Of a stretch of 64,000 nt of DNA, positions 26,249-53,685 are shown piece by piece. Numbering within the stretch: position 1 is the stretch's first letter; the number at the start of each line of letters is the position of its first letter. Origin of the DNA: a virus (Duplodnaviria; Caudoviricetes); IMG/VR virus record IMGVR_UViG_3300028833_000053, one strand, 5' to 3'. Made by a program: the position numbers and the translations under genes. The notes beneath the pieces are model-generated. The model saw only the letters and a program-made list of their open reading frames with translations. It ran no database searches and was not told the origin of the DNA.

Positions 26249-26929
26249 TCAAGTCAATATGGATTCGATGGGAGAATAACCATGATTGAATATAAATTCA
26301 TGACTGGCATTCTCCCTTCCTGTTTCAGTGGGGATATGCCAAATATACCCTTTTGCATATGAGTGTATTCCTGAAATAGGAGTATACTGAATGAAAATAT
26401 TTTTACTTGAAGCGAAAATCAAATCACTGTGAAAGACCTTGTTTCTCCTGACCCTATAACAATCAGCCGTACCCACATTGTCCAGGTATGCTATAAAAGC
26501 GTCATACATATCTTTGAATACCATATAGGCATGTGAACCATAGCAATTTGCGTTAGACAAAAGGTTATCATCAAATGGCTTGCCACACTTCAAAAATGAA
26601 TATCCGAAAATCAACAGCTTGCATCTATCGGGCATGGAGTTAAGACATTTCTCTAATTCTTGACATATGCCATTGCAAGGATAGGCATCATCTTCAAATA
26701 TGCAAACAAAAGGCAAATCCAATTGTTTGGCTCTCAAAACCAATTCCTTATGAGATGCTAAACAATTTTGGGGGCCCGTATTTTCCTACTTGCAAATTCC
26801 CTGAAACTTCTATGGAATTGGGAGTAACCTGTGCGCCTAAAACAATTTATTAAACCTGGCAAGCCTTACGTCGTCTATAGAAATTACAAATGAATTAGCC
26901 AAAAGCTGCTCAACAGTTATTTTATTCAT
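26249..26929 (-). CDS. glycosyltransferase family 25-like, 226 aa (3 TAG)
   Basis: ATG 26929; FVISID..RLARF...CLASHKELV...CIFEDDA...YGSHAYMV; AT-rich. Confidence 0.75.
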
Positions 26930-26960
26930 CAATATGCCTTTCAAATCAATTATACTTTCT

Positions 26961-29855: not shown

Positions 29856-31847
29856 TCAGAATTCCGTCAACACGTCATATTCCTCTTCACCATCATCCCA
29901 ATCCGTGCCATTCATGAAGTCAAAGGTCTCGTTCACGGAGAAAAACTCCCGCTTCATGCCATGCCCCCACTGGCGGTTTCCATAGAACAACTCGTCCTGG
30001 GGAATGTCCCTTTCCGAACCATCCAATTTGATTATCCTATGCTCTTCAAGATTGCCCAGCTGGGAAATGATGCTCTTGTTTGCCGGTAGGTTCAAAGTCT
30101 CTTCAATGAGGCTCTTGTCAAATGGACTTGTGTATGCTACGGATTCTGGTAGAATCCGATCCATTTTCGTCTTGAAAGCCTTTGTCACAGCATAGTGTTG
30201 CTGTATGGTGTCGGCGAAAAGCAAGTACATTCCCCACACCCACGTCAGCATATAGTCGTCATGGCACTTGTCCTTTGCGGAGAACGTTATGGAATTGCTT
30301 GTGTTCTTGCGGACAAACGTTCCCATTTCATTCACCAACAACTCGTCTGGAATCGCAATGTCAATTTCCTCGGTTGTTATAAGCTCGTTCAAGAACATGC
30401 AGGCTTCAAGTTTCGTCTTGTTCTTTGACTTCACGCCATATGTTATCTCCCCATATTTTCCCGTTGGGGAAATAGCCTGCTCATAGAACATTCTGTCCCT
30501 TGGGTACATGTAGGTGTCCATCATAATGTCCACGAAGCCTGCACCAACGCCATTGTTCTCAAATATCAAAGGCGGGAATCCATACAGTTTCAAGAACTCA
30601 TATGTGGCATAGCCAAAATCCACGAGGGTCGCCTTGGAACACGACATACGAGCGCAAAGGGATATGTGGCGGACGTCCGTAACGTCCCACACGTTCATCA
30701 CGGAAGAGTCGTTTCCAGTTCCCTCCGAAATATCCCCAGAAGCAGCATACGTCCTTGATGGATCAAATGGTTTCCAGAAATACGCCGTTATTTCCTTGTC
30801 GGGGTTCTTGGACAGATTCAACTGCGCGGGTTCTGGGAAGTTCTTTAGATTCATTCTGAAATGCTCTATGGAATCGGACGGCACAAGGGAGGCATCACCA
30901 CTTGACTTGAACTCGCACTCGAATTCCTGCATCCAACGGTTTATGCCAATCGTTGCAATTTGCTGGCGTTTCCATTCCTCGTCACGTCCAGGCACATCAT
31001 ACCACAAGAAGCGGAACGGACGCCAGTTCTCCTCAGATTCCACGTTGGGGTCGGTAGCCTGCTGCCATGTGTCATAGAACAGATTGTTGGCGGTTCCATT
31101 TGGAGTTGAAACCATGATTGCCTTTGAATCCTTGGAAGATGAAAGCACAGGGAACACGGACGCCATAAACTCGTCGGCGATTCCCTTTGGCAAGAATGCA
31201 GCCTCGTCCATCACAAGAACGTTTGCGGAGAAACCACGGCAACCTGATGAACCCGTGGCGAAGCAACGAATGATGGAGTTGTTCTCAAACTCAATGCACT
31301 TCTTGTTGTACGTTGTCACGCCAATTTTTATGGAAGAAGGACAGTACTCATAGGCAAGGCGGATACGATCCATGATTTCAATGGCAATATCCAACTTGTT
31401 TCCGCACACCATGATTCTCTTGTCTGGATGATACATCGCATACCACAAGAGGAACACGGTGTAGATTGTGGTTTTTCCCACCTGACGCGAAGCCGTAACT
31501 ATGACACGGTTGTTGTCCTAAATGAACTTGAGCAGTTCCTGCTGTTTTGGATATGGGTTCAGCGTGACAAGACCATCGCGCAGTGAAACTATCTTGAAGT
31601 ATTTTTTGCAGAAGTAAAGTATGTCCTTCTTGCAACGTTTCAATTCCTTTGCAGTTGCCTTGAACTGCTCAGGGGTCATTATCTCCTTCTCGCCAGCCTT
31701 CTTGATTGAAGCCAGCTCCTTGTCACCGTTCTTCTTGTTTGGAAGCAAAGCCGCGGAAGCCAACTATGGCTAATTGCTTTTTGGCTTGTTCCCCAAATCA
31801 AGATCGGCGAACTTGTCTATTTCAGTTTTTCCTATTTCCTTTGGCAT
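29856..31847 (-). CDS. terL: large terminase subunit (T4 gp17-like), 663 aa (3 TAG)
   Basis: PYPKQQELLKFI*DNNRVIVTASRQVGKTT, LVMDEAAF, VSTPNG, WYDVPGRDEEWK, QEFECEF, DISEG.G.DSS, HDD; ATG 31847 with GAGGT RBS. Confidence 0.93.
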
Positions 31848-31988: not shown

Positions 31989-33113
31989 TTAGACCTCGTG
32001 GGATTCGTTGAGGTTCTTGCCGAACTTCTCACGCCACTCCTTGTAGAGCGGATGGCGCATGAGGTTCATCACGGCCACGGAGGGCTTGATGCGCTCGGTG
32101 CCAACTCGGGCGGCGGTCATAGCCATCGTTGCGAACGCCGGGGGCAGACCCATCGAGATGCGGAGGAAGCCATTGACTCGGTTCGCGGTGTCCTTGTCGT
32201 CCGTACCACGCCAGAGGTGGTACACCATCGCGGAGGTGAGCGCGTACTTGAGGTCGTCGCGGGTCGGGATGACAACCTTCTTCTTGGGATCGGTCATCAT
32301 GTCAAGCACGTTGTCCATCTGAGCGGACAGCTTGTAGAACTCCATGAACTGCTGCCCAGCGGGGACACCAACCAGACCATACACGGCCTTGCGGAGCAGG
32401 GTCTCGTTCTTGAGAATCTTGCACATTTCGGAAACGCGCTCCCAAGAACGGGGGGTCGGGAAGCCACGCTCAAGGTTCTGGTCATCCACGGAGAGCAGAA
32501 GCTGCGGCTTGAAGTTGATGAAGCCAACCACGGTCGGGTGGATGTCATGCGAAACGGCCCACGTCACCCAGTCCTCGGCATTCGCCTCAATCTCAAGGTG
32601 CATCATGCGGTTCGCAAGAGCGGAGGACATCGTGGTGGAAACTGCGCGGTCGCAAGAGCGGTTGCCAGCGGCCACAATGAACCACTTGGACGGAACCTTA
32701 TAGACGCTGCCACCACCAAGCTGGCGGTCAAGGATAAGCTCGTAGGAGGCAACCTGCACGTCCTTGGGCGCGGCGCTCAGCTCGTCAAGGAAGATGATGC
32801 CACCCTTCTCGTTGTCGATGGGGAAGATGTCAGAGGGAAGCCACTGAACGTTGTGCTTCTCGGTATTGGGAACAGGGAGACCACGGATGTCAATGGACTC
32901 CATCTGGGCGAGGCGGACGTCCACGAAGCCAACGCCCATCTCCTTTGCCAGAGACTTGACGATGGTGGACTTGCCAACGCCAGGTGCGCCCCACACCATG
33001 ACGGGCGGAAGTTTGGAAGAGGTATTCTCGTCAGCGAGAATAGTCTCGATTGAGGAACGCAGGATGTCCTGCAGTTCGCTTGCGTGTACCACGTTGTGCG
33101 TGTCGATTGCCAT
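31989..33113 (-). CDS. MoxR-family AAA+ ATPase
   Basis: VMVWGAPGVGKS, DIRGLP, IIFLDEL, AAGNR, ALANRM.H, TPRSWE. Confidence 0.88.
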   Translation of the reverse strand: MAIDTHNVVHASELQDILRSSIETILADENTSSKLPPVMVWGAPGVGKSTIVKSLAKEMGVGFVDVRLAQMESIDIRGLPVPNTEKHNVQWLPSDIFPIDNEKGGIIFLDELSAAPKDVQVASYELILDRQLGGGSVYKVPSKWFIVAAGNRSCDRAVSTTMSSALANRMMHLEIEANAEDWVTWAVSHDIHPTVVGFINFKPQLLLSVDDQNLERGFPTPRSWERVSEMCKILKNETLLRKAVYGLVGVPAGQQFMEFYKLSAQMDNVLDMMTDPKKKVVIPTRDDLKYALTSAMVYHLWRGTDDKDTANRVNGFLRISMGLPPAFATMAMTAARVGTERIKPSVAVMNLMRHPLYKEWREKFGKNLNESHEV

Positions 33114-33355: not shown

Positions 33356-36300
33356 TCAATATGTGGTTTCATACACGTTGTTTATCTGTTCCTTGTCCTT
33401 GGAAATGCCAAAAAGCATCTTTGATATTCTCCATGCGCAGAACCTCTCGGGCTCGGGCAAAGAACCAATCACCTTGTACTTGTACCAAGCAATCAAATCA
33501 AGGTTGTCGTCACGTTCCTCGAAATTCTCAGCCAGATTATACCACGGGGGAATTGCATAAGCCGAACCAACACGGCAACAATATTCCCACTGAGCTTCTG
33601 TCGGCAAGTCAAAGTTTATTCCGCCAGTCACGCCAGAGCTCCACCTCTTTTTCCTCCATGTGGTTTTTGTCAATCCTTGCTTATTGTCCCTTGCATCCAT
33701 CAAGTACTGCATCAACGGACTGCCACCATACTTATCGTACTTTCCATTTGCAAATCCATTCGCCTTTGCTTCATATCCAGAAACGGAGAGTCCATCACCC
33801 AATTTATTTTCCCACCAAAGTGTATTGTAGTAATTTCCCTTTGCCCAGGTTTGATCACTCCTGTCGGGACCGCCACGACCATCACCTTCATAACCCGTGT
33901 TCACCCCGTATATTCGTGTCTGAGTTTGGACAACTACCTTGGAATTCAATATGTCCATAAAGGACATTGGCGTTGAAGGATGTTCAATCAACTGGAATTC
34001 ATCTCCATTGGCTGACATAATATAGCCCTTTGTAGTAGCCTCTGCGGGCGGTGAGGAATAAAGATCCCGGGCCGAACGCACTGCGTTATAGCTCGCATAG
34101 TAAAACGGACGTGTGTCCTCCAATGGGTTGTATATTCCCCAGTTGACCAATTTTGTTACGCGCTTTTCCTCCACTTCTGTCAATGGAACCGACCTGTATC
34201 CATTTGCGGGTGAAGAACCACCGGACGATGAATAGCCACCCTCTGAACCGGTGTCTCTCGGTGAAAGAGCAGCCAAGTCGCTGATTTGATCCTATGTCAA
34301 AATCACCTTGCCGTTCTTGTCCTTTCCAGTCTCAAGAAGGTATTTCCATTCTTCATTCTCCCACACGCAAACATACTTCCAATAGGATTTTTCCATCTTC
34401 TTGAAATTGGTGTCACCGATTGAACCCGGATTGCCTACTGCTTTCGCCAGATTCGCGCGGGCGTAACCCTTCATTAATGCCATGTCAGGAACCATGTTAT
34501 ATGTTGGGGTGTAGCCAGATTCTCCTGGCCGCTTTCCTGTTGCATCAACAATCAACTGATACGTTGTCACATAGCCAGCCTCGCCGGGCACTTTTCCATT
34601 TACATCCTCTATGAGTTCTTTAGTCATCGGAACGGCACCACCAGAATTTTTGTGGAAACCATACACGTAGCACCATTGGGCAATCGTCAGTTCAAACGGG
34701 TCAATGAAGAAGTGCTTGTTTCGGAAATACTTTGCGCGTTTCTTGTATGTGGTGACATATCCGGCGGCACCGGGTGACCTGCCACTGCTGTCTTTTCCCT
34801 TGGCAAGATCTCCAAACTTGTTTCTCTCGTATACCCAAGGTTGAGCAGCATCAGAAACATCTGGATTGTAGAAATCCTTCGCCCTTTCAATTGATGTGTA
34901 CCAAGACGGCCATTCCTTTTTGTTCACTGGAATGTTTGGATAGTTCCTTTGATATGAACCGCCGTTTCCAAGGGTGACATACTTGTAGTCGTCCCTTGCA
35001 CTGTCAACTATGGATTCAGCGTCCCTATACTTTCTCTTGTTCGGGTCGGTTATCAAGTCATAGTCGCTTGCGTGGCTTCCCATCACGAAGTTGTCGTACA
35101 TTTCACCTGAAATTTCCTCTATGCGTGAAAGGATTATCTTGGAGGTCTTGAATTCGTCATCCGTGTTGATCCTTGCGCTGTCCTTGAATTTCATCGGAAA
35201 CTTTCCAGGCTGCAACGTCAAGAGCGCCGCCGCGTCATCACTCAATCTACTGTCAATTCTCTTGTTGTATTCAGTCAAGTCAGGAAGAAGGTCTATGACG
35301 GCGTACTTGTATGAGAATTTCTTTCCGTCGGACAAATTTCCAACACCTGAACCCGACATAAAGGATTCATAGAACACCTCCTTCAATCCAGTCACGTCCA
35401 TCACGGGGATTGACTTGACAATCACGGTGTTTTCCTCGTCCTCGTAATCGGTGAGGGAACGTCCAGAAGAATTGGTCATTTCGTCAAAGACCTGATGTTG
35501 CCAACGGTATCCCATCAATATCGGCAAGGCTTTCTTGAAGTCGGTGTAGAACGTTTTCACGAAATTGACCAACTTCGTGTGCGACCATATGTCCTTCGCC
35601 TCACTGTACGTTCCAACGTTTTTATCGGATTTCGTGGAATTCGCAATGGCGATTTTCGTCAAAGCGAATTTCCAATACGGTGGATAGGCGGGGCCGGCCC
35701 ATGCGTCCGTTATTGTGGCATATGCCCCAACGTCGCCGTACCTGGTCTTGAATTCCGATGCAGGTGCGGGATTGCAAGTCAACACCTTGTTCTTCGTGGC
35801 GCAAACAGCGGCACTGGTTATCAAGCCAGAAGAGGTCTTGGCAATGTTTTCCTGATGGACTATTATCTTCATATGTCCTGTGACAACTTCCCTTTGATCC
35901 TCACCTTCTCCCTCCATATGTCTGTATGTAATGGTAATATAGTCCAACGGTTCCTTTGTCCAGGCGTATTTGCAATCTATCTCGGTTGGCGGGGAATAAT
36001 CCCTAACCTTAAGCGACCGAATCCAACTTGTGCCAGAAGTTGAGGTCGCTCCAGAACCATACACCGAAGGACTCAACGCGGAACACATCTTATTGATGAA
36101 CATTGGATAGCAAGTTCCTGCAAAATTGGATCCCGCAAGAGTCCAATCTTCGGGCCACTCGCCAGTTTCTTCGTTCTTTTTCTTCTTGTACACCACGCAC
36201 AGGCAAACGGCCATAAGCTCTATGGATTCCTCCGTCAACGTGTACTTGCCCATGCGCCTAAACGGATAATCTTCAGTTTTCTTCCTTCTGTTTTTGTCGT

Positions 36301-39300
36301 CCCACACGGTCAATGGACACAGATGCTTGTCTATGAATTCACGAGCCTTTGCCGAAAGAATGTATTTCGGTTTTTCGTTTGTGTGATCTCCTCTTCTGTT
36401 TGCCACGCCATCCTTTCCTTCAGGCAAGGTGCCGGATTTTGCATAGTCATATATGATTTTAGCCCAAGTATTCGGTATGTTGTAACTGGCGGCTGCTCGG
36501 GTCAAATCAGATTCACCACCGCTCGTCACCCAACCTTCTTCGTCAGCCTCGCCATGAGGAAACACGCTTTGCACTATGTAGTCCCCCATAAAGCCGGCGA
36601 ACTCGCCATCGTGGGCATGGTATTTCTAACGCCAACTGCCCTCGGCAAACGTCTCGTCTCCTTTCTTTAGCGTGCGGCAAGCGGGAAGACCCATAATGAA
36701 GAAATACTTGTCATAATAAGCAATCTACGTGTCGTCTTTTCCGGGGGTTGGACGGTCCTCCGCCCTTGGAATAATGACATCCTTGCTCATTGTTACTCCA
36801 TTCCAAGTACCGTCTTTTTTTCCAACAAACGATTTCCATCCGTGGCGTGTGGCAAACACCATGTTGGTGCTGGTATATGGGTTTTCAAGTCCGAATATCG
36901 TTTCGAGAATACTTGCGTCTTCTTCATTGCATACGACATTCTCTATTGCGCGGGCGTCGTCCATCTGAAGGGCGTTGTTGGACATCCTCAAGATTTTCCA
37001 TGTCAAAGGTTCACCGTCCTTGAGGTATTTGGAGAACCATCCCCTCATTTCAGAATCGTCGATTACAACCTAATCCATATCCTTGAACAAACGTGGTTCG
37101 TTGTTCATGTAGAAGGACTTGGCAACTTCAAGGGCGTTTGCCGCAGTAACTTCTCCCGTATCATACAACGGCGTTGGCGCGTTTGCATCGCTTACGAACA
37201 TGTATGAATTCACGGGTTGATCTGTCAACGCCATCGTGTTGCGCAATTGGAAATATCCAATCGTCTTCAACCAATCATAACTGACATAGTGCTTCTTGTC
37301 GATGCTGGAGTTTCCTGGCATCTGTCCACTTTCATACAAAGTTGACTTTTGTGTTTCCGTGAGAAGTTTCGTAGATTCCATTCCGTCAAACGGATATGTT
37401 TCCTTTTGCATATCGGCGGAAGACAAGGATCCAGAAACCTTCAAGTCATCCGTGACAACACTTCCTGCGCTCCATTTGACCGTTACGGACAGCTTATGTA
37501 TTTCCTTCTCTATTTCATTGAACTTTCCAGTATTTCCATCAAGCAAGGACGACACGGCGGTCATGGCATTATACTCTTCAGACCCAGAATCCCTCGGGTT
37601 CAATCCAACATTATAGCAATAAGTCTCAAAGGTGTCCTTCAATGATGCGGCATTTCCACGCATCATTTGCAGGCAATACGGGTCTGGCGGAACCAAATCT
37701 CCCCCGAAAACGGACGTGCCACCATAGAATTGAAGCGAGGTCTTACCCGGTATTCCAGGACTGACAAGAATTTCCTTTGACTGCACACCGCCAGCTTCAG
37801 AATAGGTGGTGTCCATTTCATTGTCATATTCATTTGCAAACACGAACACCAACCTCGGAACTTTCTTTCTGAAAAGATAGCCCAATCCCCGGTGGTTTGG
37901 ATGTCCATAGAAATATCCCTTTCTTATCAACTTGGACATCATGCGGCAAGTAGGTTCGCAACCGGCCCACCAGTTAGAGAGAACACCCTTGTCACTGACG
38001 ATAAACGGAAATTCAAAGTTTTCTACACCTTCATCCGTTGGGTCATAGGTGAAGAACGGAACTTCCTTGCTGAACGCCTCTTGGCCGTCTTGCGCTTCCA
38101 CTGTCCACTTGTCCGTCGTTCCATTCCACGTCATCCCCTGATAGCTGGCGAAGTATCTCTGCCAATCTCCAAATTCGCCAGTTCCCTGCTTGCCCTCCAA
38201 TTCATCCTGCAATGGAACGTCTGACTCTCCGTCAACATGTACACCAGCCATTTGCTTGGTTATTCCGCCAAAAGTCAACGGCATCGGGCGAAGTTCACTG
38301 TCAACTTCAGTACCGCCCTTAATCCAAGCTGGAACACCACAGAACAAGTTGAACTTCTTTGACAAGGTATAGTAGTAAACCGTAACGTCCGCGTCCTATG
38401 GATATTCAGGTGGCGGGTCTTTCTTGTTGTGAACCAAAATACCTTGCTCTCCAACATAATATGTATGGGTTCCTGAAACCTCAAGGTTGTACACATATCC
38501 CAATCTCAACCCAACATCAATGCTGTCTATGGTATGCCAAGTGCCATCAGGACGCAACAACTTATCTGAAACCTTCAAATCCTGGGCCGTAACCCAATCT
38601 GTTTTTTCATCCCTGTTGACGTAGAACGGATGAACTCCGGTTGCCTCGATAGTTTCTTCTCCGACTTTTATGGTGAAAATCTCCCTGACAAGCAAGTGAC
38701 GCATTGTCTTCACCACCTTGCAGTATTGATTTTTGCCGGAAACTTCATCATAGGAAAGAACCGTGTCACCCTCTTCAACCTTGTCAATGTCCTTCCGTCC
38801 ATCAAGCATTATGACCTTCGTTCCAGCAACAAAACAGTCGCCGCCTTTGTTGTGAACCAACGCGCCACGTTCACCGACATAGTACGTATGCGTCCCTGAA
38901 ACTTCAAGGTTGTACACATATCCCAACTTCAACGCAATGTCAATGTTGTCTATGGTGTCCCATGTCCCATTGGGGCGCAGCAGCATATCTGAAACCAACA
39001 AATCCTGTGCTTTTACCCATGACACTTCCCCACCCCTATTGACATAAAATGGATGTACTCCCGTTGCCTCAATTGCCTCATCGCCGATTCTTATGGTGAA
39101 AATCTCCCTGACAAGCAAATGCCTCAACGTTTTCACCACCCGACAGTATTCGTTTTTACCCGTGGTTTCATTATAGGAAAGAACAAGTTCACCTTCCTCA
39201 ATCTTGTCAATGTCCTTTTCCGTGCCATCCGCCATAAGAACTTTCGTGCCCGCGACAAAACAATCCGTCGAGCCCTTATTGTGTGCAAGAATATGTTTTC

Positions 39301-42300
39301 TTCCGACATAATAGTTGTGGTTCTTCGTGACTTCAATGTTGAACACGCCGGTTGACAACTTCTGCGATGCAATCTTGGAAATGCGGTGCAAACTTCTGTC
39401 ATGGAACATCACAAGGTCTCCGACAACAATCTCGTCCGCCCTAATCCAGGATTTCTTGTCCTTGCGCATGATGTAGAACCTGTGGTTTCCAGTGACATCC
39501 AATTCGTCGCCCTCGATGGTGAATGTATAGATGTCCTCGTCAACATCGTGCGTCATCGTCTGGGCAACTTCGCTTATTTCATTCTTTTCCTCTTCTTCGT
39601 TATACGAAACAACTTGGTCTCCGACGGAAACATCCTCTATGTTCTTCAAGGAACCGTCGGACATCTCCACCTTTGTTCCGGCAACGAAACACGAATAACC
39701 GCCTGAACCACCCGTGTCGCTTCCTCTTGATTTCAGGGGTTCCTGACTCTGAATCTCCCCATCGAACCCAAAATCTCCTTCATCGCCATATTCAACCTGT
39801 ATGTCATCTTCCTTGTATTCACCAGACCACTTGTCAAGTACGTTGGACTTGTAAGACCACTCGGATTCAAGGTTCTCAACCAAGCTCCCGTCTATGGACT
39901 TGGCTGAAGAACCACCTCCCTCGCTGCCCATCATCCAGCAATTTTCATAGTAGTTCTGGAAGAACGTCTCAAACCCACTTGGCTTTCCATCCGCCCCCGT
40001 GCCCGAACCGAATGCCCCGGTTGTCCAATGCTTTTTCGATTCCGCACAACCCCATCCGTAAGGTCGGCCTTCACCATTACCTCCTCCCCAGTTTGTATAT
40101 GGCGCATTATCAGCGCCAGAAAGGTAATAGTGGTACGTTGTGCTGCCATATCCCCTTTTCCAGTTGTAGTAGCTGGGCATTCCATCGTAACTGCCATACT
40201 TTATCTGCGTATATTCAGCACACTTATGTGCGCACATGAACCTGAGCGTCGGACCAAGGAACAACGCAGAACCAACATGGCAAATGTCATATGTTCCCGT
40301 TTCACTATATCCCGCAAACATGCGCACTATGTCGGTTGCGGATTCAATCATCCTTGTTATCTGGTTGTTCTGTGAAGCGGAAGCGTCAAAGAGGAAGAAC
40401 AAGTCAACTGGACTTGTGTGGAACTCAAACGACGAACCCTCGTTTTCCGCACTGAATATCATGGAAGGTCTGAAACCAACGTTCGCCTGCGTTGCATATT
40501 TGGACTTGAACCTGTCAGGAGCAAGTTCCTCACGGGAACTGCATATCACCTTTCTGCAAAGTTGATCGAACGCTCCACCCTTGATTACCTTCTTCGTATG
40601 CTCACCGACAGTGACAATCGGGTTGACTTCTGGATTACCCTCTGTGCTGCCCGGACCACTTTCCTTCTTGATGGTGGCGTTCCAATCGTCCCTCACCCAT
40701 TCCCAAACGTTTCCAAGCATGTCGTACATCACCAATTTGGTTGACGGGGACAACAACTTCCCTACACGGTGGATGAAAAGCTCGTTGTAAGACCATTCGT
40801 ATCTCCAATAGAACTGGGGAACAACTTGGAACGTTATGGACTTCATGTCCTTCACGGTAAGGTCGTGATGGGACTTGTTCATACCTTCCATTGAAGTATA
40901 GACTGGGAACAATTGCTTGTTCAACACGGTCTTGCTGATTTTGCGAATCCACTTTTGCCTGCTGTCGTTCAAGTAGTATTCAGACTCGGGAAACTCCTAA
41001 TCCAAATCCAATGTCTTGGGGAATTGAACTGTGGTGTCGGACAACAATTGCTGATAAACAAGACTGTCTCCAATTATGTAGTTGGCGGGAACATCCTCAA
41101 ACTTGAATCCCTGGTATATCCTTGCTCCCTCTGGAACAATGTCGTCCTCTTCATCTTCTATGTACGCCTTGTAGCCCTGATCATAGGGGTCGCCCAGCGG
41201 AACCTTCAACTCTCTCGGCCTCATACCATCGTGGTCGTCGTCAACGCCATCCAGGGTAGTGACTCTGAAATTGTCGTGGCTGTTCAATATCCTCTCATAC
41301 GTCAAACTGGCCCGCGCCATTTCATAGTCGATGGCATGCCATTTCACATGAGCCAAATCTTCGTCAAATTCCTCCTTCGGCCTCATCTTCCATGCGGTAT
41401 ACTTGGCTATAAGCTCGACCCTTCTTGCCTCTATCTCCTCGTCAGTTGGCTGAGGTATGTTTCCTGTGAACATGACGAAAGAAGCCTCGTGTTCCCTTGC
41501 GTTGCGTTCAAGGACGTGGGAAATCTCAATGAAGGAGTTCGTCCAGTGGACGTAGCAAGGCGTTCCATAATTCGTGGAAGAGCCATCAACGTCGCCAAAC
41601 GTGTTCCTTCCATTTGCCATTATGTTGCCTTTCCACTTGTTCTGCTTGAACGTCCTGTATATGCTTCGGACAATCTTCTTGGTGTACTTCTCCAAGGCTT
41701 GCCACGCTGCAAGATCGCTTCCCAACTCGCGGCGCTTGTTCTTGAAATACTTTATGTAGGTATAATGGCGTACCACGTTCCACAAGTTCCAGGTCATCGG
41801 CCTTTCATGTATGGAATCAAGAACGTCCGTGTTCATGTTCTCTGGAATCTGTTTTTTCCTGAAGTCACCGTCTCCGTGGCATTGCTCACCAAAATAGTAT
41901 TTGTCCGCCGTTGGGTCTTCGTGTTGTGGCGTACCAAAGGCGTTGCTCATGTGGTGTATCTTCCACTTCTCGTTCGTGCCGGCGCAATTGGGGTCAAACA
42001 CGCCCTTGTAGCAGTTTCCAGAATTGTCGGTTGTCAACACCGTGCCGCCATAGTCGCGTTTTGCAAAGTCGGTGCCAATGGTGTGCTGCACGGCGTGCCA
42101 CTTGTGCTCCGACAGGAACGTAGGTGTCCTTCTTTCCTCCTTCGTGTCGGAATCAACCTCAACATACTCGTCTTGTTTTTCGTGCGCGTTGGAATAGCAA
42201 TAGCCACCCTCTTCATAGTTGAGCTTCGCACTGCTGATTCTTCCATAGCAGTCAACTGTCGGTCCGTTGTTCTAGTCGCCTCTGTTCTCCCACCAAAACA

Positions 42301-45300
42301 CGTAGGGCATAATGTCCTCAAGTTCAACCACCTGGTTCAAGTCCTCCAACGGAGAAACCATCGTAATGTAGAACCACACGGAATCTTCGTCGAAATCGTC
42401 TATTGCGTGGGCTTGACTGAGGTTGTACTTGTACTTCAACCTGTCGGGACTTGCCTTTCGTGCTTCGTCATATACGTACTTGTTCACGGTCAAGTCAACG
42501 AATGAACCGCCCTTGTCGTAATCGTCAACCCAATCCTGGTATGGGAACCTGAATTCACCAGAACCACCACTTCCAAAATCGTATTGAGTGCCATACATTC
42601 CATTGAACTCACCGTCCTTGACCGTAAGTTGCTTCAACGTCTGATATGGAATGAGCTTGGTGAACCTCTCGGCCAGCGTCTTGAGGTTGTTCTCGTTGTG
42701 GTGTCTCTTCGCCAAGAACTCGCAAGCGCGAACAATGTCGCCGAACGCAGGATCTTCCGTGCGTCCCTCATTTGACTGCTCGAATATGATTCCATTTATG
42801 TGATCGGAACTCTTCGGCACCTTGTCCGTCTGATAGGTGTCAAGCATGAAGCTGTACAACTCGCTGTTCTGCTTTATGTTGAAGAACGGAATCAAGAAGT
42901 ACGTCCAATCCCTTTGGTTGTAGAGATAGTACCAAGTGCTTTTTATGTTGTCAACCAAAAAGCCGCTCTTGTCATCCTCGTCCTCGGGATTCAACTTCAC
43001 CCATTTCTCGTAAACGCTTCTCTATGTATCGTCAAACACGTCAAGATGGAAGTCGCGGTCCATCTAAAGGAAGTTGTAGCCGCCAATTCTGTTGTACTTG
43101 TCATAGGACGACGGAACTATTATGGAGTCCTCGTTGTACTCCATGTTCACCATCGTCTTGGAAGGAATGGTACACCATCCAAAGACGCCATATCGGTTTT
43201 CAACGTCCGCCTGATACTTCGTGTCAGCCGCCATGTCGCAATCGTTGAATATGTCCCTTACCTTCGGCATTATGATTGGACGGTACTTCTTCACAATGGA
43301 AGTGAATGTCTGCAACTAATCCTGACCCCTGACTATCTCGTTGTAGGTTCCGTCGTTCTTGTGTCCCAACCTATGACGCAGGAAATCGTTTGCGTCAACC
43401 GGGGACTGGATGGTGGAGTTTTCGTAGAGACAAAGCGGACGTATGTCATAGTAGTTCTGCTGATCGTCCAAAGTCGGCGTCACGTTCGTGGAAATGTTGT
43501 CGTCTATGGTCTTGTTCCTGTCGGTTGTGTCGTTCTTCCTCTTCTGGACGCTTTGAAGGGTTTTCCTGTAGTCATAGTAGTAGTAAAGATCGTTATAGTG
43601 TACTGCGTTCGTGTTGTATTCACCAATCAACTCGCGGTTCACTGGAGTTATTCTCCAATTCAACGCCCGTGTCTTGTCTATCCTGCAAACAAGCCTGCCA
43701 TCTTCCACTTGGTTTGCCGTGTGGAAGTTGGAGAACTTGAATTCAATTGCGGGTTCAAAGGAAATCCACTTCACGTCCCCATTGAAGCACACCACCTGGT
43801 AATTTGAAGGGGTTCCGCACACAACATCGCCTGAATTAGTGCAGATTATTTCATCCAACGCCTCGTCGGCCTCACCCAATATCTCTCCATACCACCAATC
43901 TGACTTCTCGGGCACGTCTATCTTGAGGAAATACTCCTTGTGCGCTATGTCTATGTTTATCTTGAACAACGCCTTGAGCAAGTTGACAACATCAACTATT
44001 TCAAGCATCGTCAAGGGCATGAAGTCGTTTGCACTTGACTTCAATCTGTTCAACAAGCTGAGGAACGGACAAGCGGAGAATTCATCAAATCGGGATTCAT
44101 CATACTCCCTGGGATTCAACCCAATCAACGTGCAATAGCACTTACCCTCTGAATTCACCTTGTCTATGTCTGGATGACCAGACCAATACTGGCAAGTTCC
44201 CAATGTATGATCTGGTTCATCTTGAACACGGGGGTCAACCAAGTACGAACTAACGCCATCCAATTTGTCCTGTTCGTCACCATTCAAAGGAACAACAACC
44301 TTGTCGTATACTGCAACCAAAACGGATTCCGAAAGTATGGTCATGGAGGACGTTATGTTTCCACTTACCAAACTCCAATACCTGAACACATACTGGGTGC
44401 AAGAATCATCGCCATCCTTTACATTCGTTTCCAAATGCAGGTGGAATGAAGGTATGTGCTGATTCTAAACAACATCCTGCCACTTCTCGGCCTCGTGTCC
44501 ATCCTAATCTATGTACTTGAACGTCACGCGGAAGGCAGTTTCGCCACCTGCATGAATCTTCGCGGTGATATACCTTTGATATTGCTCAGCGTCGGACTTT
44601 CCATCGCAGATGATGTACTTGCTCAAGTTCTTACCTTCGTCAAAACCTTGGTTGTCACCTTCCGCAGACACGCCGGTGTTCGCCAATGGCTCGGTTCTGT
44701 CATCGCAAATTATGGCACCGCCACGTCCCTCGATGCCCGGAAGCACATCACCTTCCAAACTGCTCCAACCAAGAAACTTGAGGTTTGGATTAGAAAGTTT
44801 GGGGTTAAACGGAGGATATACCACCGTGTTCACTTCCTTGTCAATCAAGACATCGCAATAAGGCTCGTCACCAACCTTGAACGTCAATATGTCATAACCC
44901 AACGTCCAATTAGCCTCCAACACCACAATAGGCGCAGAATCCACCCATTGCTGTTGAATTCCAAACTGATACTCGTCATAGCATATGCCATAGGAACCGC
45001 CAATTGAATATTGCCAATTGGCGAACTTGTGCGTCTGCCAACGTTCACCCGTGGCGTTCAACCCAGTTGGAGAATCCAAAGGATAGTCGAATTCCCAGAA
45101 TCCAGTTGGGGAATCATGGTATTCAAAGCGAAGTTTGTCCCCAGATGGTCCCGTGAAAGTGCATTTTGGCAAATTCACAAGTTCGTTGGCGCGGACCGTA
45201 ATCGGCCTCATTTCGCCCGAACCACCATCGCCGGGTCTGAACTTCACGATATATTGCGTGTTCCAAACTGCATAAAGGCTCAATGTGTCGGAATCATGGA

Positions 45301-47836
45301 AGTTCCACTTCGTCAACACGTCATCCAAGTCAATGGACGGCACCTGGGCAAACCTGTCCGTGGAAAAACCAAGCAGTTCATATTGCACCGTCAATCTTGA
45401 AGATGCGTCCAAAGTCTCGTCCGTGTCCGTAAACGTTGGCTTGTTGACCAACTTCACCTCGGAAAGATCCAATTGGAAATCATCACGTTCCGCTTCAAAA
45501 TGAATTGACTGTGGTCTGTTCAACAAGTCGCGCTTGAATGAAGATCCAACCGGCACCTCGACAACCCCACCAGTCCATTGCATGTAGCTGTTCAAGTTGA
45601 AGTTGATGTATATGTCACGGTGACGGTATCCAACATCCGCCGCGGCACGGCTATTCAACATTCCCTTTACGGGAACCGGTTCGCTTTCTTCAAAGGAAGG
45701 TGCTTCTTCAACCACAATCTCCTTGGGTGCGGAATCGCTCTCCCGGCACAATGGGCAAAGATCCCAATTCTTCAACAACCAACCCTGTCCCGTTTTCGCC
45801 AAGATTTGAAGAAATTGCTCCAATATCTTGCGTTCATCCGTGTCTAGTCCAGAAGTGCCAGGATTCCTCCAATATTGCTCCACTTTCGCCAAATACCTCA
45901 GGTAACCATTTGGATCATCCATATCGTTTTCGTCATAGTACACAAAGGCATTGGGGTTTTGGGAATGCTTCAAGGTGTCGGTTGTAAGGTACTTGTAGCC
46001 ACTGTCGATGTTGATATGGCGTTGAAACACCTCTCCGGTTGTTGACTTGAACTGCAAATACTTGTAGAGACGCGAAAACACTCGCTCAATCACGATTGCA
46101 CATTGGGACTGGGAATAGTCATTGACGTTTGCCGGGTTGAATTCCTCAATCGCGTTCATGGAAGAGTTGTATATGTTGAATATCTTTTCGTTCTTTATGA
46201 CTTCAAATGCGTCCGCAAGGGCGTAGTAGCCCTGTTCCAACATCTTGTCCCTGATGTCGGAAACGTCCTTAACTGCCTCACCAAATATGGGTTTCACGTA
46301 TTGACTACCAACCAGGTCATTATCCGTCAATTCGTGATATTCAAAAGCGGACATCACGTCATAGGCGCAACCCAAGTGAAGATTGGTGTACTTGGTGTAT
46401 ACGGACCTATGGGATTCCTGATATACCTTTCCTGGTTGGTAGAACCAGTCATAGTCGTTGTCCGAATCGGCCTTGTGCGTAACCTCTGCAAGGGAAACAA
46501 ATCTCCTTACGATGTCATTCATCTTCGTCAACACGCCACGAGGAAGAACGCAATCCTTTCTGGTGTTGGCTATCGCAAGGCAATTGTCATTGTATTCCTG
46601 CCACATCACGTCGTTCCATATAAAGGCGTACTTTACAAGATTGCCCAGCTCGTCTGGAACTCCATCACCTATGGTCTCATCGTCAATCCACTCCAAAGTG
46701 GCGGATGGCAAGGAATCCTTGTATATGCGTCCATTGGTGGCATTTTCAACATCGTCGCTTTCAACATACTCACGTCCAGATTCATCCGTGAAAACCTGCT
46801 TCCTTGACATCGGGTTCATGTTGAAATACTTGACATCAAAAGGATACTTCGCGTCTATGCTCTTGTAGAGAAGGTTGTACCAAATGTCCAAGGCAAGAAT
46901 GCCCTCCCACCTGCGGTGTGGGTGCTTGAAGCCATATATCTCATGGCACATTCTTATGTTGGAAAGCTTGGCGAACAACTTGGCAATGTGTTCACAAAAG
47001 ACATATATGTAGGACTTGCTGTCAGTCAATGCAACGGCGTTTCTGAAAGAAGTCTTTGCATCGTGAATGTCCTTTTCAAGATTCCTCAACTCAAACATCG
47101 TTGAGGACTGTCCATGTCTGTGAATGTCAACCTGCTGTTTCTTGTCAATTCCAGTGTAGTCCTCGTTGTACTTCCCATAGTTGTAGTCAGTCAAGAACTC
47201 ATCCGCATATATGCCAATCTTGGGGTCGGTTGTGGCATAGTCAACAAAGGGCGTGTATGTGAAGGAATCCAGGAAAAACTCACCATTCTCAAAATCCTCC
47301 TTCACCCTGTCGTAATCCACCTGACGGAAACCATCATCAACCATAGTGAAGCCGGTTATGCCATAGGTGTTCTGATAGGATTCCAGTTTCAGGGATTCCC
47401 CACTTCTGTACTTGAATCTGAACAAATCACGGAAATAGTTCTGTGAATCATCGCCATCAAGTTTCATTTGCTTTGAAAAGTCCTGAAGCAAAATCTTCTC
47501 AATGAACTCAAATGGCGTGATGAGCCTGTCTATCATGTTTGGTGGATAGTACGGGTTGTTGTTTATGGGCAATTCCGGCGTGGATGACGTTTCATCGCAA
47601 TGGACAAGATAGGAGGTTCCCTCATATGCGGTCTCCCTGTACTTCGGACCAAGTTCAAGGAGTTGTGTTACACGGTGGTTCCGATTACGGTCCCCGTTTT
47701 CGCCATTTGACCTGTCACCATTTACGACATCATCCTGTGGACGCATCTCCTTGGAAATGTAGTCATATATCTGTCCTGAGTTTGGTGTTTCGCCAAGTAT
47801 AAGTTTCTTAAGATCTGTTACGTAAGAATTGCTCAT
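33356..47836 (-). CDS. giant ~4,826-aa virion-associated protein: InlB-B-like repeats, permuted FGE/C-lectin halves, vWA motif, 3 tandem Hint domains (12 in-frame TAG)
   Basis: ten ORF-track pieces from 44504-47860 down to 33356-34276 are all in one frame and separated only by TAG; ends TGA; late motif at 47880. Confidence 0.85.
38426..39691 (-). repeat. three tandem Hint/intein-like domains (39278-39691, 38849-39262, 38426-38836)
   Basis: each CFVAGT...TG[N/V]H...V[F/Y]N[I/L]EV..H.YYV....HN, 137-138 aa; copies 2 and 3 are similar at DNA level. Confidence 0.9.
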
Positions 47837-47879
47837 TGTTCTTTCTTCTCTATCTACCAATCTTCAACTTTCGTAGAAC

Positions 47880-49256: not shown

Positions 49257-50009
49257 TTATGAAAGTTCCCGTAAGATATTTGTCATAGTGCAATTGGTTG
49301 TGCAAAACAACTTGTTCACAGACCTTATGGACTTGTACTCTTTTGGTGTCCAAGAGTTGTGCAACATATATATTGGTAGTTTTGGCATTTCATCCAATGT
49401 CAAATTCTTGTTGAAATACAAGTCCACATACTTTTCATGCCTTTGCAGTTTGGTTCCAGAACCTTCCGCATAGCAAATTGTGTTTGGATGACGCTAGAAC
49501 TGTTCAGGATGTTTCTTGATATATGGAACATACATATTGCATCCAAAAGCCAGGGAAGTCGTATCCTCTCTCTTCTCCGTAACAAGAACCTTCTTCACTT
49601 GCAGATCTTTGTAAAACCGGAGAAACTCCGTATTTGGTTTTGATTTCAAATACCCATTACTGCTTCCAAACATTTCAAGCCCAACACCATCGTCCATTTC
49701 TGCATCCAGAAACCTCTCCTCGAATTCGGATGATGGGATTATCGTGTCGCAATCCAACCACACACCGCCATTGTTCAACAAAACGTCACATCTAATCACA
49801 TCCGAGATTTTGGCAAGGGAAAATATCTTGGAACGTGTCAACTTCTCCCACATTTCCTTGTCCTATGGCAACGTTGACCAATCCGACATGTTATCATATG
49901 TGAGAAGAACAATATCGTGATGGTGAATGTTCTTGTGCCAAGTCTGAATGCAAGCCTGTATATATGCGGGAATCTTATCCACGTTATGCCAGAAGTGAAA
50001 TATCTTCAT
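49257..50009 (-). CDS. capsular-polysaccharide-synthesis / GT32 DXD glycosyltransferase, 250 aa (2 TAG)
   Basis: IFHFW...IPAYIQACIQTW...SDVIRCDVLLNNGGVWLDCD...MLHNSWTP. Confidence 0.75.
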
Positions 50010-50021
50010 TGTCAAACTCCT

Positions 50022-51161
50022 TCAATTCATGTTATTTCCCAAAGCACTGTACTCTTCGAGTCCAAGTATGGAATTGACAATGTTTTGACACGGTGTTTTC
50101 CCATTGGGAAACTCACTGCAATATTTGGCAATATACTCCTTACGCAAACCGGAATTTTGATCTTTTCCATCAAGAACGTCTCTAACAAACCTATCAACGG
50201 TGTCTCCATTTTGCGGCCAAACAATCTCATGGCAGTTGATTGCATCCTTGCCCATTTGAGACCAAATCTTCGGGTCCATGTTCACGTCATTTGCAACGTA
50301 GCACACTGGCTTGTCCATGTAGAGATATTCACAACGGAACGAGCCGCAATCATGTATCATCGCGTCGGAGTGCTTGAACCAATCAACATGGTCCGCGTCG
50401 CAAACTATCAAGCATTTCTCGGAAAGTTTGTCCAAAATGTTCGCAGCCTTTTCAAATATTTTAGTGTCCTTCACACGCTTCAAATTGGATTTCCATTGAT
50501 AGTACAAATTTGGGTGTGGTCTTACAACAAACTCCACCTCATTCTTGTACTTATCCACCATCTATATCAAGTCGTCCCCAATTTCAAGAAAATTGGTCTT
50601 GTTGCCATACTTCGTATACGTGTTCTCCTGCAACGTCCAATGCGGGCAAATCAAAATCCTTTTCTTTCCCGTTGTTTGCCAAGGATCATTGAATTGCTCT
50701 TTTGGTTTCCTCAATACCTCTGCCCAAGGATGTCCAGTAAGAACGTGATAGGGCTTTTGTATGAGTTCAGGCAAGTCGCAAAACACCAAGCAGGCCTGGG
50801 CGTTGTATATCTGATTGACATGAATATGCCATCCAAGGGAATAGCGTATGAACATCATCTTGCGCTCAATAACCAGTTCATCATAGAGGTCTGGATCATT
50901 GAGGTGTGAATACTGGGCATACAACAAAGGAGGAAATACCAGATCAACGTCATAGATTGCATTGGAATATTCTTCTCTGTCTTTTGTTTCAATGACCTTA
51001 AACCTTTTGTCCGACATTATATAATTCTCAAACGGGCCCGTCTTGCACTTGCACTTGTACCCATCTATGTTGCTGTTCATGTCGGATGGAAAAAGGACGG
51101 TTATAGGCTCGCCGTCCCTGTACTTTTTCCTCAATTGCTCTAGTTTTTGATACCTTTTCAT
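50022..51161 (-). CDS. CDP-glycerol:glycerophosphotransferase (TagF-like) family protein, 379 aa (1 TAG)
   Basis: ILICPHWT, VRPHPNL, SDAMIHDCGSFRCEYLYMDKPV; two ORFs abut at TAG 50562. Confidence 0.7.
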
Positions 51162-51206
51162 TTCACTTCCGCCCAATGTATTTACCAAAAGCCAGAAAAT
51201 TCCACA

Positions 51207-53621
51207 TCAAGCGTCCACGCATGTGTGCTTGACTCTCTGCTCAGTCTCCTTCTGCTTGCCGTAGTTGAACGCAGTCTTGTAGTCGCCGGTCAAGTAGCCC
51301 GTCACGCGGCGAAGCCTCTGGATGTTGGTGGAGCCGCACTGGGGGCATTTCTCGCCAATTTCATCCGTGTAGCCGCAATCGTTGCAGATGTCGTTCGGGA
51401 CGTTGATTGCGAAATAGGGGATGTCGTGATCCATTGCGTAGTTCACAAGCTCCTCTATTGCCTTGATGTTGTTCTTCGCGGTTCCGTCAAGTTCAACATA
51501 GGTGATGCATCCTGCGCTAGAATATCCCGTAAGCTGACTTTCAAGGTCAATCTTCTCAAACGGCGTCATCTTCTCCCATACGGGAATGTGCATTGAATTG
51601 GTGAAGTAATCGTGGTCTGAGACATGTTCAATCTCGCCATACTTCGCCTTGAACTTCTTCATCGCAGTATAGCACAGATTCTCCGCTGGGGTAAAATACA
51701 CGCCGAAATTCAGCTTGTACTCCTTCTTGAACTCCGCGCACCTGTCCTTGAACAACTGCTCGATTCGTTTCGCAAGTTCCATGCCCTTCTCCGTGGCGTG
51801 GTTGCATCCAATGAGGATGTGAAGGGTCTCCGCAAGTCCCAACTGACCGATTGCCAACGTTCCATGCTTCAGCGCGGACTTGATGCCCTCTTCTGGCTTG
51901 TAGCCGTACATCGTCCCGTTTTCGTACATGAACTTGGCGGACGCAGCGGGTTGTGAGGTAATCCAGTCAAACCTTTCAAGCAGTGAATCCTTGGCTTCAT
52001 GAATCTTCTTGTCCAGAAGTTCCATGAAATACTCAACTGTTTTTGTCTCCGCCGCCCCTTCGCACCAGTCAATTCCCTTGGCGGTGGCTTTCTTCAATTC
52101 AGATTCCATTTTCTTCTTCGCCTGCATCGCCAATGTCGGCATTATGATCGTCGTCGGACAGATGTTTCCCCTACCGTCCTTCAACTGAACCAACTTGGGA
52201 TCTTCCGCGTTGATGTCGGCAAGGTTGGCGGTTCTGCATCCCATCGTGCTGAAATAGGTGCAGGGGTTGTTTGGGTCATAGCCAGCTGCATTTGACCAAT
52301 CCACGTTCGCATAGTTCGGATAAAGCCTCAACGCAGTTGACTTGCAAGCCAACTTGAACAAATCGTAGTTGGGGTCTCCCTTCTTCCTGTTCACGCCCTT
52401 CATGCACTGGAAGATGCCACACGGGAATATGCTTGTCTTGTGAAACTTGCCAATTCCCTTGATTGAACCCTCAATCAACGCCTTTGTCACCATTCTTCCC
52501 TCTGGCAACGTGCAAGTGCCATAGTTTATTGACGTAAACGGCAACTGGTTTCCGCTCCGCGATTGTAGTGTATTGAGGTTGTGGTACATTCCCTCAACCG
52601 CCTGCTCCAGTTCTCTGGTTGTCATTTCCATGGCATACTTGTACGCATCGGGGAACTTCTTGTATGCATCGCTTTCAATAGAAACTTCCTTCGACAAGAT
52701 TGTATATTTGACCTTTCCGTTCTCCTCCTTGGCATAGCCATTGTCCTTCAGCCATTTCAACTTCTCGTCATGTGTCAAACCAGACTTCTCAAACTCCTTG
52801 TATTTCTTCTGAATCTCGTCATCCCCAGTCCATTCATTTGTGAATTCTACGAACTGCAAGAGATTCACGCCCTTTCCTGAATTCTCAACGAATTCCAATG
52901 CGTCCTTGAAGTGCTTGAAGAAAGACTTGCGCACATACGGCACCATCGTCCAGTCAAGATGGGTTGCCGCAACCCCACCGAACTGCTGCAGGGATTGAAG
53001 CTGGAATATCACAGCCACCAACTGAAACGCGGTGTTGATTGAGCCAGCTGGTCTGACATCACCCTGCCTTGTGTTGAAGCCCTCTTTCAACAACTTGTCA
53101 AATGGGATTGAAAGGCAGTTGTGACTGCCCACTGCGTATGCGTCAAGGTCGTGGATGTAGACCTCGTTGTTGTTGTGGTTGTGGCGCGTCTTCTTGGAAA
53201 CCAGATGTTCCAATGCGTAGTTCTTCATCACATAAGACGCGGTCTCGCCCATTCTCCCACCAAATGAATACTCGTCAACGTTCGCATTTTGGTTTTGGAC
53301 ATTGGACGCGGTCAGCTTCTCGGTGAGGTATTTTGTGTTTCTGACCCTCTCCTTCTCGTATCGGTACGTGATGTACTTCTTGGCAACCTCGTAGCCAGCG
53401 GCCTCCATTATCTTCTTCTCAATGACATCCTCAAGAATGTCAATGTCAATCGGCTCCTCCAACGTCTCGCAAAACGCCACCACGGAATCCGTTATGCGCT
53501 TCAGCTGCTTTGCTGTCAGCTTCTCGTCGGCCTTTACGTTCTCGTTTGCCTTGATGATTGAATTCAAAATCTTCTTCGGTTCAAGGTCTTCCACCTTGCC
53601 GTCTCGCTTTATCACTGTCAT
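51207..53621 (-). CDS. nrdD: anaerobic ribonucleoside-triphosphate reductase (class III) with ATP cone
   Basis: VIKRDG ATP cone, YIHDLD, NC, MGCRT, TPAENL, CxxC/CxxC, RRVTGYL glycyl-radical motif. Confidence 0.95.
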   Translation of the reverse strand: MTVIKRDGKVEDLEPKKILNSIIKANENVKADEKLTAKQLKRITDSVVAFCETLEEPIDIDILEDVIEKKIMEAAGYEVAKKYITYRYEKERVRNTKYLTEKLTASNVQNQNANVDEYSFGGRMGETASYVMKNYALEHLVSKKTRHNHNNNEVYIHDLDAYAVGSHNCLSIPFDKLLKEGFNTRQGDVRPAGSINTAFQLVAVIFQLQSLQQFGGVAATHLDWTMVPYVRKSFFKHFKDALEFVENSGKGVNLLQFVEFTNEWTGDDEIQKKYKEFEKSGLTHDEKLKWLKDNGYAKEENGKVKYTILSKEVSIESDAYKKFPDAYKYAMEMTTRELEQAVEGMYHNLNTLQSRSGNQLPFTSINYGTCTLPEGRMVTKALIEGSIKGIGKFHKTSIFPCGIFQCMKGVNRKKGDPNYDLFKLACKSTALRLYPNYANVDWSNAAGYDPNNPCTYFSTMGCRTANLADINAEDPKLVQLKDGRGNICPTTIIMPTLAMQAKKKMESELKKATAKGIDWCEGAAETKTVEYFMELLDKKIHEAKDSLLERFDWITSQPAASAKFMYENGTMYGYKPEEGIKSALKHGTLAIGQLGLAETLHILIGCNHATEKGMELAKRIEQLFKDRCAEFKKEYKLNFGVYFTPAENLCYTAMKKFKAKYGEIEHVSDHDYFTNSMHIPVWEKMTPFEKIDLESQLTGYSSAGCITYVELDGTAKNNIKAIEELVNYAMDHDIPYFAINVPNDICNDCGYTDEIGEKCPQCGSTNIQRLRRVTGYLTGDYKTAFNYGKQKETEQRVKHTCVDA

Positions 53622-53685
53622 GTTTATCCTCTTTGATTCTGGTGTACAAACATACATTTACCATTATCAATTATACCAGCGAAAA

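Follow-up and report, generated by a model that had tools for sequence, protein, structure and literature searches.

The window analysed here is a 64,000-nt stretch of the IMG/VR virus record IMGVR_UViG_3300028833_000053 (Duplodnaviria; Caudoviricetes), which is a complete 433,895-bp genome with terminal repeats. A giant gene on the minus strand of this window encodes three back-to-back Hint domains (Hint1, Hint2, and Hint3) deep inside its protein product. An initial annotation, made from the letters of the window, had described the positions of the three domains, their motifs, the short spacers between them, a Lys directly after each domain, and the lack of an endonuclease, and this description proved exact to the base on the minus strand (Table 1). 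The minus strand of 38426-39691 encodes 422 stop-free residues; a plus-strand reading of the same region was ruled out by its abundant stops. All three Hints start with C-F-V-A-G-T-K-V at their N terminus and end with H-N, and block B reads T-G-N-H in one of them and T-G-V-H in the other two. The residue at position +1, directly after the Hint, is Lys at all three junctions, and neither Cys, Ser, nor Thr occurs there. An endonuclease domain is absent from the Hints because 137-138 aa leaves no space for it. A genome-wide profile scan detected no further Hint domain in the rest of the genome.

Table 1. Features discussed in the text. Positions are those of the window, except for the tRNA gene, and residue numbers are those of the giant open reading frame (ORF). 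AF2, AlphaFold2; pLDDT, predicted local distance difference test.
Feature	Position	Strand	Residues or size	Remarks
Giant ORF P0002, TAG as sense	33356-47860	-	4,834 codons	12 TAG and zero TAA/TGA in frame
Likely true start, ATG	47834-47836	-	residue 9
N-extein	39692-47860	-	residues 1-2723	Gly/Ser-rich linker end, ...T-G-G-S-G-G-Y-S
FGE-sulfatase-like piece	about 40469-40735	-	residues 2376-2464	C-terminal part of the profile
Hint1	39278-39691	-	residues 2724-2861, 138 aa	type a; Cys1, T-G-N-H, terminal H-N, +1 Lys
Spacer Hint1/Hint2	39263-39277	-		K-G-S-T-D; pLDDT < 50 in AF2 model
Hint2	38849-39262	-	residues 2867-3004, 138 aa	type b; Cys1, T-G-V-H, terminal H-N, +1 Lys
Spacer Hint2/Hint3	38837-38848	-		K-G-G-D; pLDDT < 50 in AF2 model
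Hint3	38426-38836	-	residues 3009-3145, 137 aa	type b; Cys1, T-G-V-H, terminal H-N, +1 Lys
C-extein	33359-38425	-	residues 3146-4834, 1,689 aa	begins K-K-D-P-P-P-E-Y-P
In-frame TAG after the array	38396-38398	-		nine codons past the last Hint; kept in the 94%-identical relative L011
FGE-sulfatase-like piece	about 33527-33649	-	residues 4738-4778	middle part of the profile
MoxR-like AAA+ ATPase	31989-33113	-		directly downstream of the giant gene; Pfam AAA_5, AAA_3; PHROG 1297
Large terminase	29856-31847			after the MoxR-like gene; Terminase_6N
NrdD	51207-53657	-		anaerobic ribonucleotide reductase with ATP cone
ArdA-containing protein	53969-56314	-	781 aa	two ArdA antirestriction stretches in the C-terminal part
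tRNA with CUA anticodon	G000:C1 410487-410576			outside the window

The three stretches match the Pfam family PT-HINT (PF07591) with an E value of 6.7e-46 and 156.4 bits, against a cut-off of 27.7, and the three copies scored 78.8, 69.7, and 39.6 bits in the genome scan with this family. Sequence matches in PDB were 8w20 (E 1.4e-15), a 1,368-aa protein with a C-terminal Hint, and 2lwy (E 3.1e-14), the bacterial intein-like (BIL) domain of C. thermocellum, which was the best solved single-domain match by sequence. The triplet was modeled with AF2 using as input 13 aligned natural arrays of three Hints, taken from unrelated proteins, across which Cys1, T-x-x-H, and H-N are invariant. The model (pLDDT 85, predicted template modeling score 0.48) consists of three separate beta domains, and the spacers between them are disordered. 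In a Foldseek search with this model, 2lwy came first (template modeling score 0.93 over the target, root-mean-square deviation 1.5 Å), followed by BIL2 of the Tetrahymena BUBL locus and then by ordinary mini-inteins and Hedgehog. Sequence and predicted fold together support the assignment of the three domains to the A-type bacterial intein-like (BIL / PT-HINT) mini-Hints with intact catalytic residues, the same family that the initial annotation had named.

The window Hints share with the A-type BIL domains (Amitai et al., 2003; Dassa et al., 2004; 2lwy) the mini-Hint fold without an endonuclease, Cys1 together with T-x-x-H, the terminal His-Asn, the lack of a +1 nucleophile (Cys, Ser, or Thr), and a position in a variable region of a non-conserved protein. 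They differ from them in the host, here a 4,834-aa protein of a TAG-recoded megaphage, in the arrangement of three back-to-back copies with Lys at every +1 position, and in a copy number that varies from 0 to 3 between homologous phage proteins. Canonical mini-inteins have the fold and the Cys1/T-x-x-H/H-N chemistry in common with the window Hints. Unlike those inteins, however, the window Hints have no +1 nucleophile, stand in tandem, and occupy a poorly conserved linker, not a conserved active-site motif.

The protein identity between Hint2 and Hint3 is 76.6% and the DNA identity is 75.9%, whereas Hint1 is 38-41% identical to either of them in protein and 51-55% in DNA. An assembly artefact was excluded, since the copies differ by 24-49% in DNA; the initial annotation had judged such an artefact unlikely for the same reason, and the triplication is real. 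The dN/dS value (ratio of nonsynonymous to synonymous substitution rates) was 0.11 between Hint2 and Hint3, at a dS of ~1.3, and 0.28 between Hint1 and Hint3. The divergence and the dN/dS values indicate that the duplication is old and that both copies have been retained under purifying selection. In a phylogenetic tree of Hint domains, Hint2 was sister to Hint3 (100/98) and the pair grouped with type-b Hints of other relatives, whereas Hint1 grouped with the Hint of the relative L013 (99/95) and with that of L011. A foreign-DNA signal was rejected: the GC content and the GC content at third codon positions of the Hints are inside the spread of the gene, with Hint3 ~1.5 standard deviations low.

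Comparison of Hint copy number in related phages, which the initial annotation had proposed as a check, revealed that the site of the array holds 0, 1, 2, or 3 copies. In an alignment with L009 and L010, two relatives without Hints, the array takes the place of part of a linker that is rich in Gly, poorly conserved, and flanked by a conserved D-A-S-A-S block and by a conserved block around C-G-V-P-A-W. L010 is a complete 418-kb phage and L009 is a 60-kb fragment; both are ~42% identical and need TAG read-through, too. No Hint was found anywhere in the L009 and L010 records, and both proteins align on either side of the array with a Gly-rich stretch at its site. One Hint each is present in L013/L014, whose protein is 45% identical to the window protein and whose Hint is 67% identical to Hint1 and followed by +1 Lys, and in L012 (36% identity), whose Hint is of type b and followed by +1 Ser. 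P0061 (34% identity) has at least one Hint, with +1 Lys. Two Hints in the order a-b, with the spacer KD, were found in L018, and three in the order a-b-b, the order of the window array, in L019, again with KD spacers. Both L018 (about 1400-2600) and L019 (about 230-1450) are short ENA scaffolds with frame breaks within the Hints, which are either decaying copies or assembly errors.

The relative L011 (Logan SRR16020817) is 94.3% identical to the window in DNA over 14 kb of the gene, and it has one Hint. Its flanks are 90-100% identical to those of the window array up to the Hint edges, whereas its Hint has at most 57% protein identity to any window Hint and carries a 13-residue Ser-rich insert. 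At the DNA level, the first 190 nt of the L011 Hint are ~75% identical to Hint1, and outside this part its identity to each of the three window copies is 50-60%. Since the flanks are near-identical and the Hint is divergent, the Hint cassette appears to be a sharply bounded island of turnover in a stable gene. A collapse from three copies to one by recombination between Hint1 and Hint3 was also considered for L011 and was ruled out by the divergence of its Hint.

The C-extein is homologous to the C parts of L009, L010, and L013 at 28-45%. A search with the C flank against a set of 5.8 billion proteins gave just four matches, which indicates that the family of the host protein is small. No close relatives of the Hints were found in IMG/VR by exact peptide patterns, and no relatives of the N flank in a JGI metagenome scan. 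A profile scan of IMG/VR with alignment of the flanks yielded no relatives beyond those already known.

Arrays of this kind were sought in sequence databases by a HMMER scan with Hint3 over 1.84 billion cluster representatives, which gave 20,499 matches, and the best 150 of these were re-scanned with a three-copy profile. Two to five near-complete Hints were found in 62 of the best 150 (40 with two, 15 with three, six with four, and one with five), a proportion that should not be read as a frequency, because matches were ranked by the sum of their domain scores, which puts multi-copy proteins at an advantage. In many of these multi-Hint proteins, the gaps between the Hints are 1-6 residues long. 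As judged from these sequences, the back-to-back architecture is clearly recurrent, and the view of the initial annotation that tandem triplication with almost no extein between copies looks unusual did not hold. The junction is stereotyped, H-N-K-G(G)-C, with the typical spacers K, KG, KGG, KGGG, KD, and KP. Lys occupies the +1 position at 43 of the 50 internal back-to-back junctions (86%) in these best 150 relatives, compared with 46% of the remaining junctions in multi-Hint proteins and 35% of the junctions that follow a single Hint, and it is the commonest +1 residue in the Hint subfamily. No paper on tandem Hint/BIL arrays was found in the literature searched.

The host proteins of the subfamily are varied and include, for example, a subtilase-PKD protein with four Hints. 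Four tape-measure-like phage proteins (P0003, P0041, P0043, and P0045; PhageMin_Tail) of 2,900-3,500 aa carry one to three Hints far inside the chain. These Hints fall in a neighbouring clade in the Hint tree, outside the giant-protein family. P0019, P0038, and P0054 consist of ~25 N-terminal residues, four back-to-back Hints joined by K-G-G, and then a Tim44-like domain. The tandem arrays of the tape-measure-like and Tim44-like proteins thus belong to the same subfamily and have the same junction as the window array, but reside in other host proteins. Another known system, the BUBL loci of Tetrahymena (PDB 6tmm, 6y75), resembles the window protein in having several BIL domains per polypeptide. 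There, however, the BIL domains alternate with ubiquitin-like domains, whereas the window Hints are separated by merely 4-5 residues, and the host is a ciliate instead of a phage.

The giant protein exists only if TAG codons count as sense codons. Among the 36 tRNA genes of the genome, most of which lie in one cluster, is one with a CUA anticodon. TAG read-through is needed by many ORFs of the window. The TAG positions align mostly with Gln in relatives, and TAG/CAG swaps were seen in the closest relative; it is therefore likely that TAG means Gln in this phage. When the window is read with translation table 11, the Hints form the end of an 858-aa ORF, and neither the giant protein nor the internal position of the Hints is apparent from standard gene calling with TAG as a stop. 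If TAG suppression were partial, there would be an extra product terminating just past the array.

Besides the Hints, Pfam detected just two FGE-sulfatase-like pieces in the N and C parts of the giant protein. The odd order of these pieces along the chain is independent of the Hints, as the Hint-less L009 and L010 align over both regions. The D-A-S-A-S motif lies near residue 2490 of the N-extein, and residues ~2482-2516 give a faint match to the Integrin_beta VWA family over a D-x-S-x-S start (Pfam, E 0.13). A model of the natural Hint-less L009 region, which addressed whether the flanks form one vWA-like domain, was of low confidence (pLDDT 30). The order of the giant gene and the MoxR-like gene is the same in the relative L013, and the predicted MoxR-like ATPase may form a pair with a putative vWA-like part of the giant protein. 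The terminase is 32-34% identical to those of cultured large myoviruses. The genes of NrdD and the ArdA-containing protein are located upstream of the giant gene, and NrdD suggests an anaerobic host. Glycosyltransferase-type genes (49257-51188 and 26249-26944, minus strand; Caps_synth/GT32-like, TagF-like, and GT25-like) are found near the late genes.

We consider it reasonably probable that the intact A-type BIL modules are an optional self-cutting cassette in the flexible Gly-rich linker of a giant late protein and that they act mainly by cleavage. In each Hint, an N-S acyl shift at Cys1 would produce a thioester that is then hydrolysed, and the terminal Asn would cyclise. Canonical trans-esterification is impossible, since every +1 residue is Lys, and with this step barred, cleavage would be the main outcome. 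BIL domains without a +1 nucleophile give predominantly N- and C-cleaved products (PMC7664689; PMC7765530). Processing would be predicted to yield a 2,723-aa N chain and a 1,689-aa C chain whose first residue is Lys, besides three free Hints of ~15 kDa each and two tiny spacer peptides; the two chain lengths agree with the ~2,700 and ~1,700 aa that the initial annotation had proposed. The two chains would separate even if single reactions failed, because six scissile bonds stand in series. The presence of three copies is best understood as a result of the copy birth and death typical of the Hint subfamily, and exactly three would not be required. Its recurrence in tape-measure-like proteins suggests that the array may be useful as a site of processing without a protease; alternatively, it may be a self-removing element that is merely tolerated in the linker.

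Several points weigh against a cassette that is useful and that mainly cleaves. A merely tolerated, self-excising parasite would account equally well for the purifying selection and the intact catalytic residues. The Hint-less L009 and L010 keep an unbroken chain, which indicates that cleavage is not essential to the protein family. Dassa and colleagues (in 2004) reportedly found that an A-type BIL domain without a +1 nucleophile splices at some yield by aminolysis, and by analogy some fraction of the window chains may be re-joined. In L012, moreover, the +1 residue is Ser, with which canonical splicing could occur.

Splicing by aminolysis would have the freed alpha-amine of the downstream Lys attack the upstream thioester, so that the array would remove itself and the site would end up in a continuous chain of ~4,400 aa. 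The Hint-less homologues, in which the chain is continuous through the site, and the requirement for nothing more than a short Gly-rich linker at this place are consistent with such an outcome, as is the +1 Ser of L012. Rebuilding the window chain, however, would take three successive low-yield ligations with Lys at +1 of all three junctions, and the products reported for BIL domains are predominantly cleaved (PMC7664689); we therefore regard splicing as unlikely. The thioester could instead be attacked by the +1 Lys or by a nucleophile of another molecule, which would create an isopeptide branch or attach the N chain to a virion or host component. The strong enrichment of +1 Lys at back-to-back junctions relative to single Hints points in this direction, and so does the Tetrahymena BUBL BIL2, the second-best structural match, which forms an isopeptide with a Lys epsilon-amine (PMC8616854). 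On the other hand, the window Hints have neither a ubiquitin-like domain nor any other defined cargo between them, the spacers vary freely among relatives (K, KG, KGG, KD, KGSTD) as plain linkers do, and +1 Lys may merely favour Asn cyclisation. Ligation of this type thus seems quite improbable. Similarly speculative, and just as hard to credit, is the wider proposal that +1 Lys is a working nucleophile and that H-N-K-(G)n-C arrays are ATP-free ligation devices or release activated or cyclised spacers. If the arrays were ligation devices, the 2,723-aa chain would be joined by an isopeptide bond either to the C chain or to a different protein of the virion or host. If either ligation or spacer release were true, the long-unexplained BIL domains would gain a defined function.

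The AF2 model, with its three independent beta domains on flexible joints, would also suit inert beads, that is, Hints serving as a non-processing, beta-rich spacer in a long fibre or appendage. Against this possibility, no catalytic residue has been lost from any of the three copies or from the 13 aligned arrays, dN/dS is as low as 0.11 between Hint2 and Hint3, and copy-number variation from 0 to 3 among homologues would be odd for a structural spacer. We find it very doubtful that the array is inert. The initial annotation had also linked the domains to polymorphic toxins, in which a toxin at the C terminus is released by the Hint, as happens in CdiA, Rhs, or Umb-type toxins. PT-HINT is indeed the best Pfam family, shared at the sequence level with those systems, and the top PDB match, 8w20, has its Hint at the C terminus. 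The C part of the window protein, however, is 1,689 aa long and 28-45% conserved with relatives over its whole length, which shows that it is not polymorphic. It has no match to a toxin family, and the next genes encode the MoxR-like ATPase and the terminase; neither an immunity gene nor a secretion context accompanies it. The link to toxins was accordingly not borne out, and release of a toxin by the window array is scarcely credible. Self-cleavage within the linker remains the explanation that we favour.

This type of array is already frequent in databases; what is new here is its site in a Gly-rich linker and the series of zero, one, two, and three copies at that one site in related megaphages. 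The value of the locus lies in this series in a giant protein of recoded megaphages, together with the strong +1 Lys signature of the subfamily. Two genes that are 94% identical and differ in having one or three copies offer a direct test of the effect of copy number on processing. The array also suggests that the cutting of giant virion-type proteins may not need a protease.

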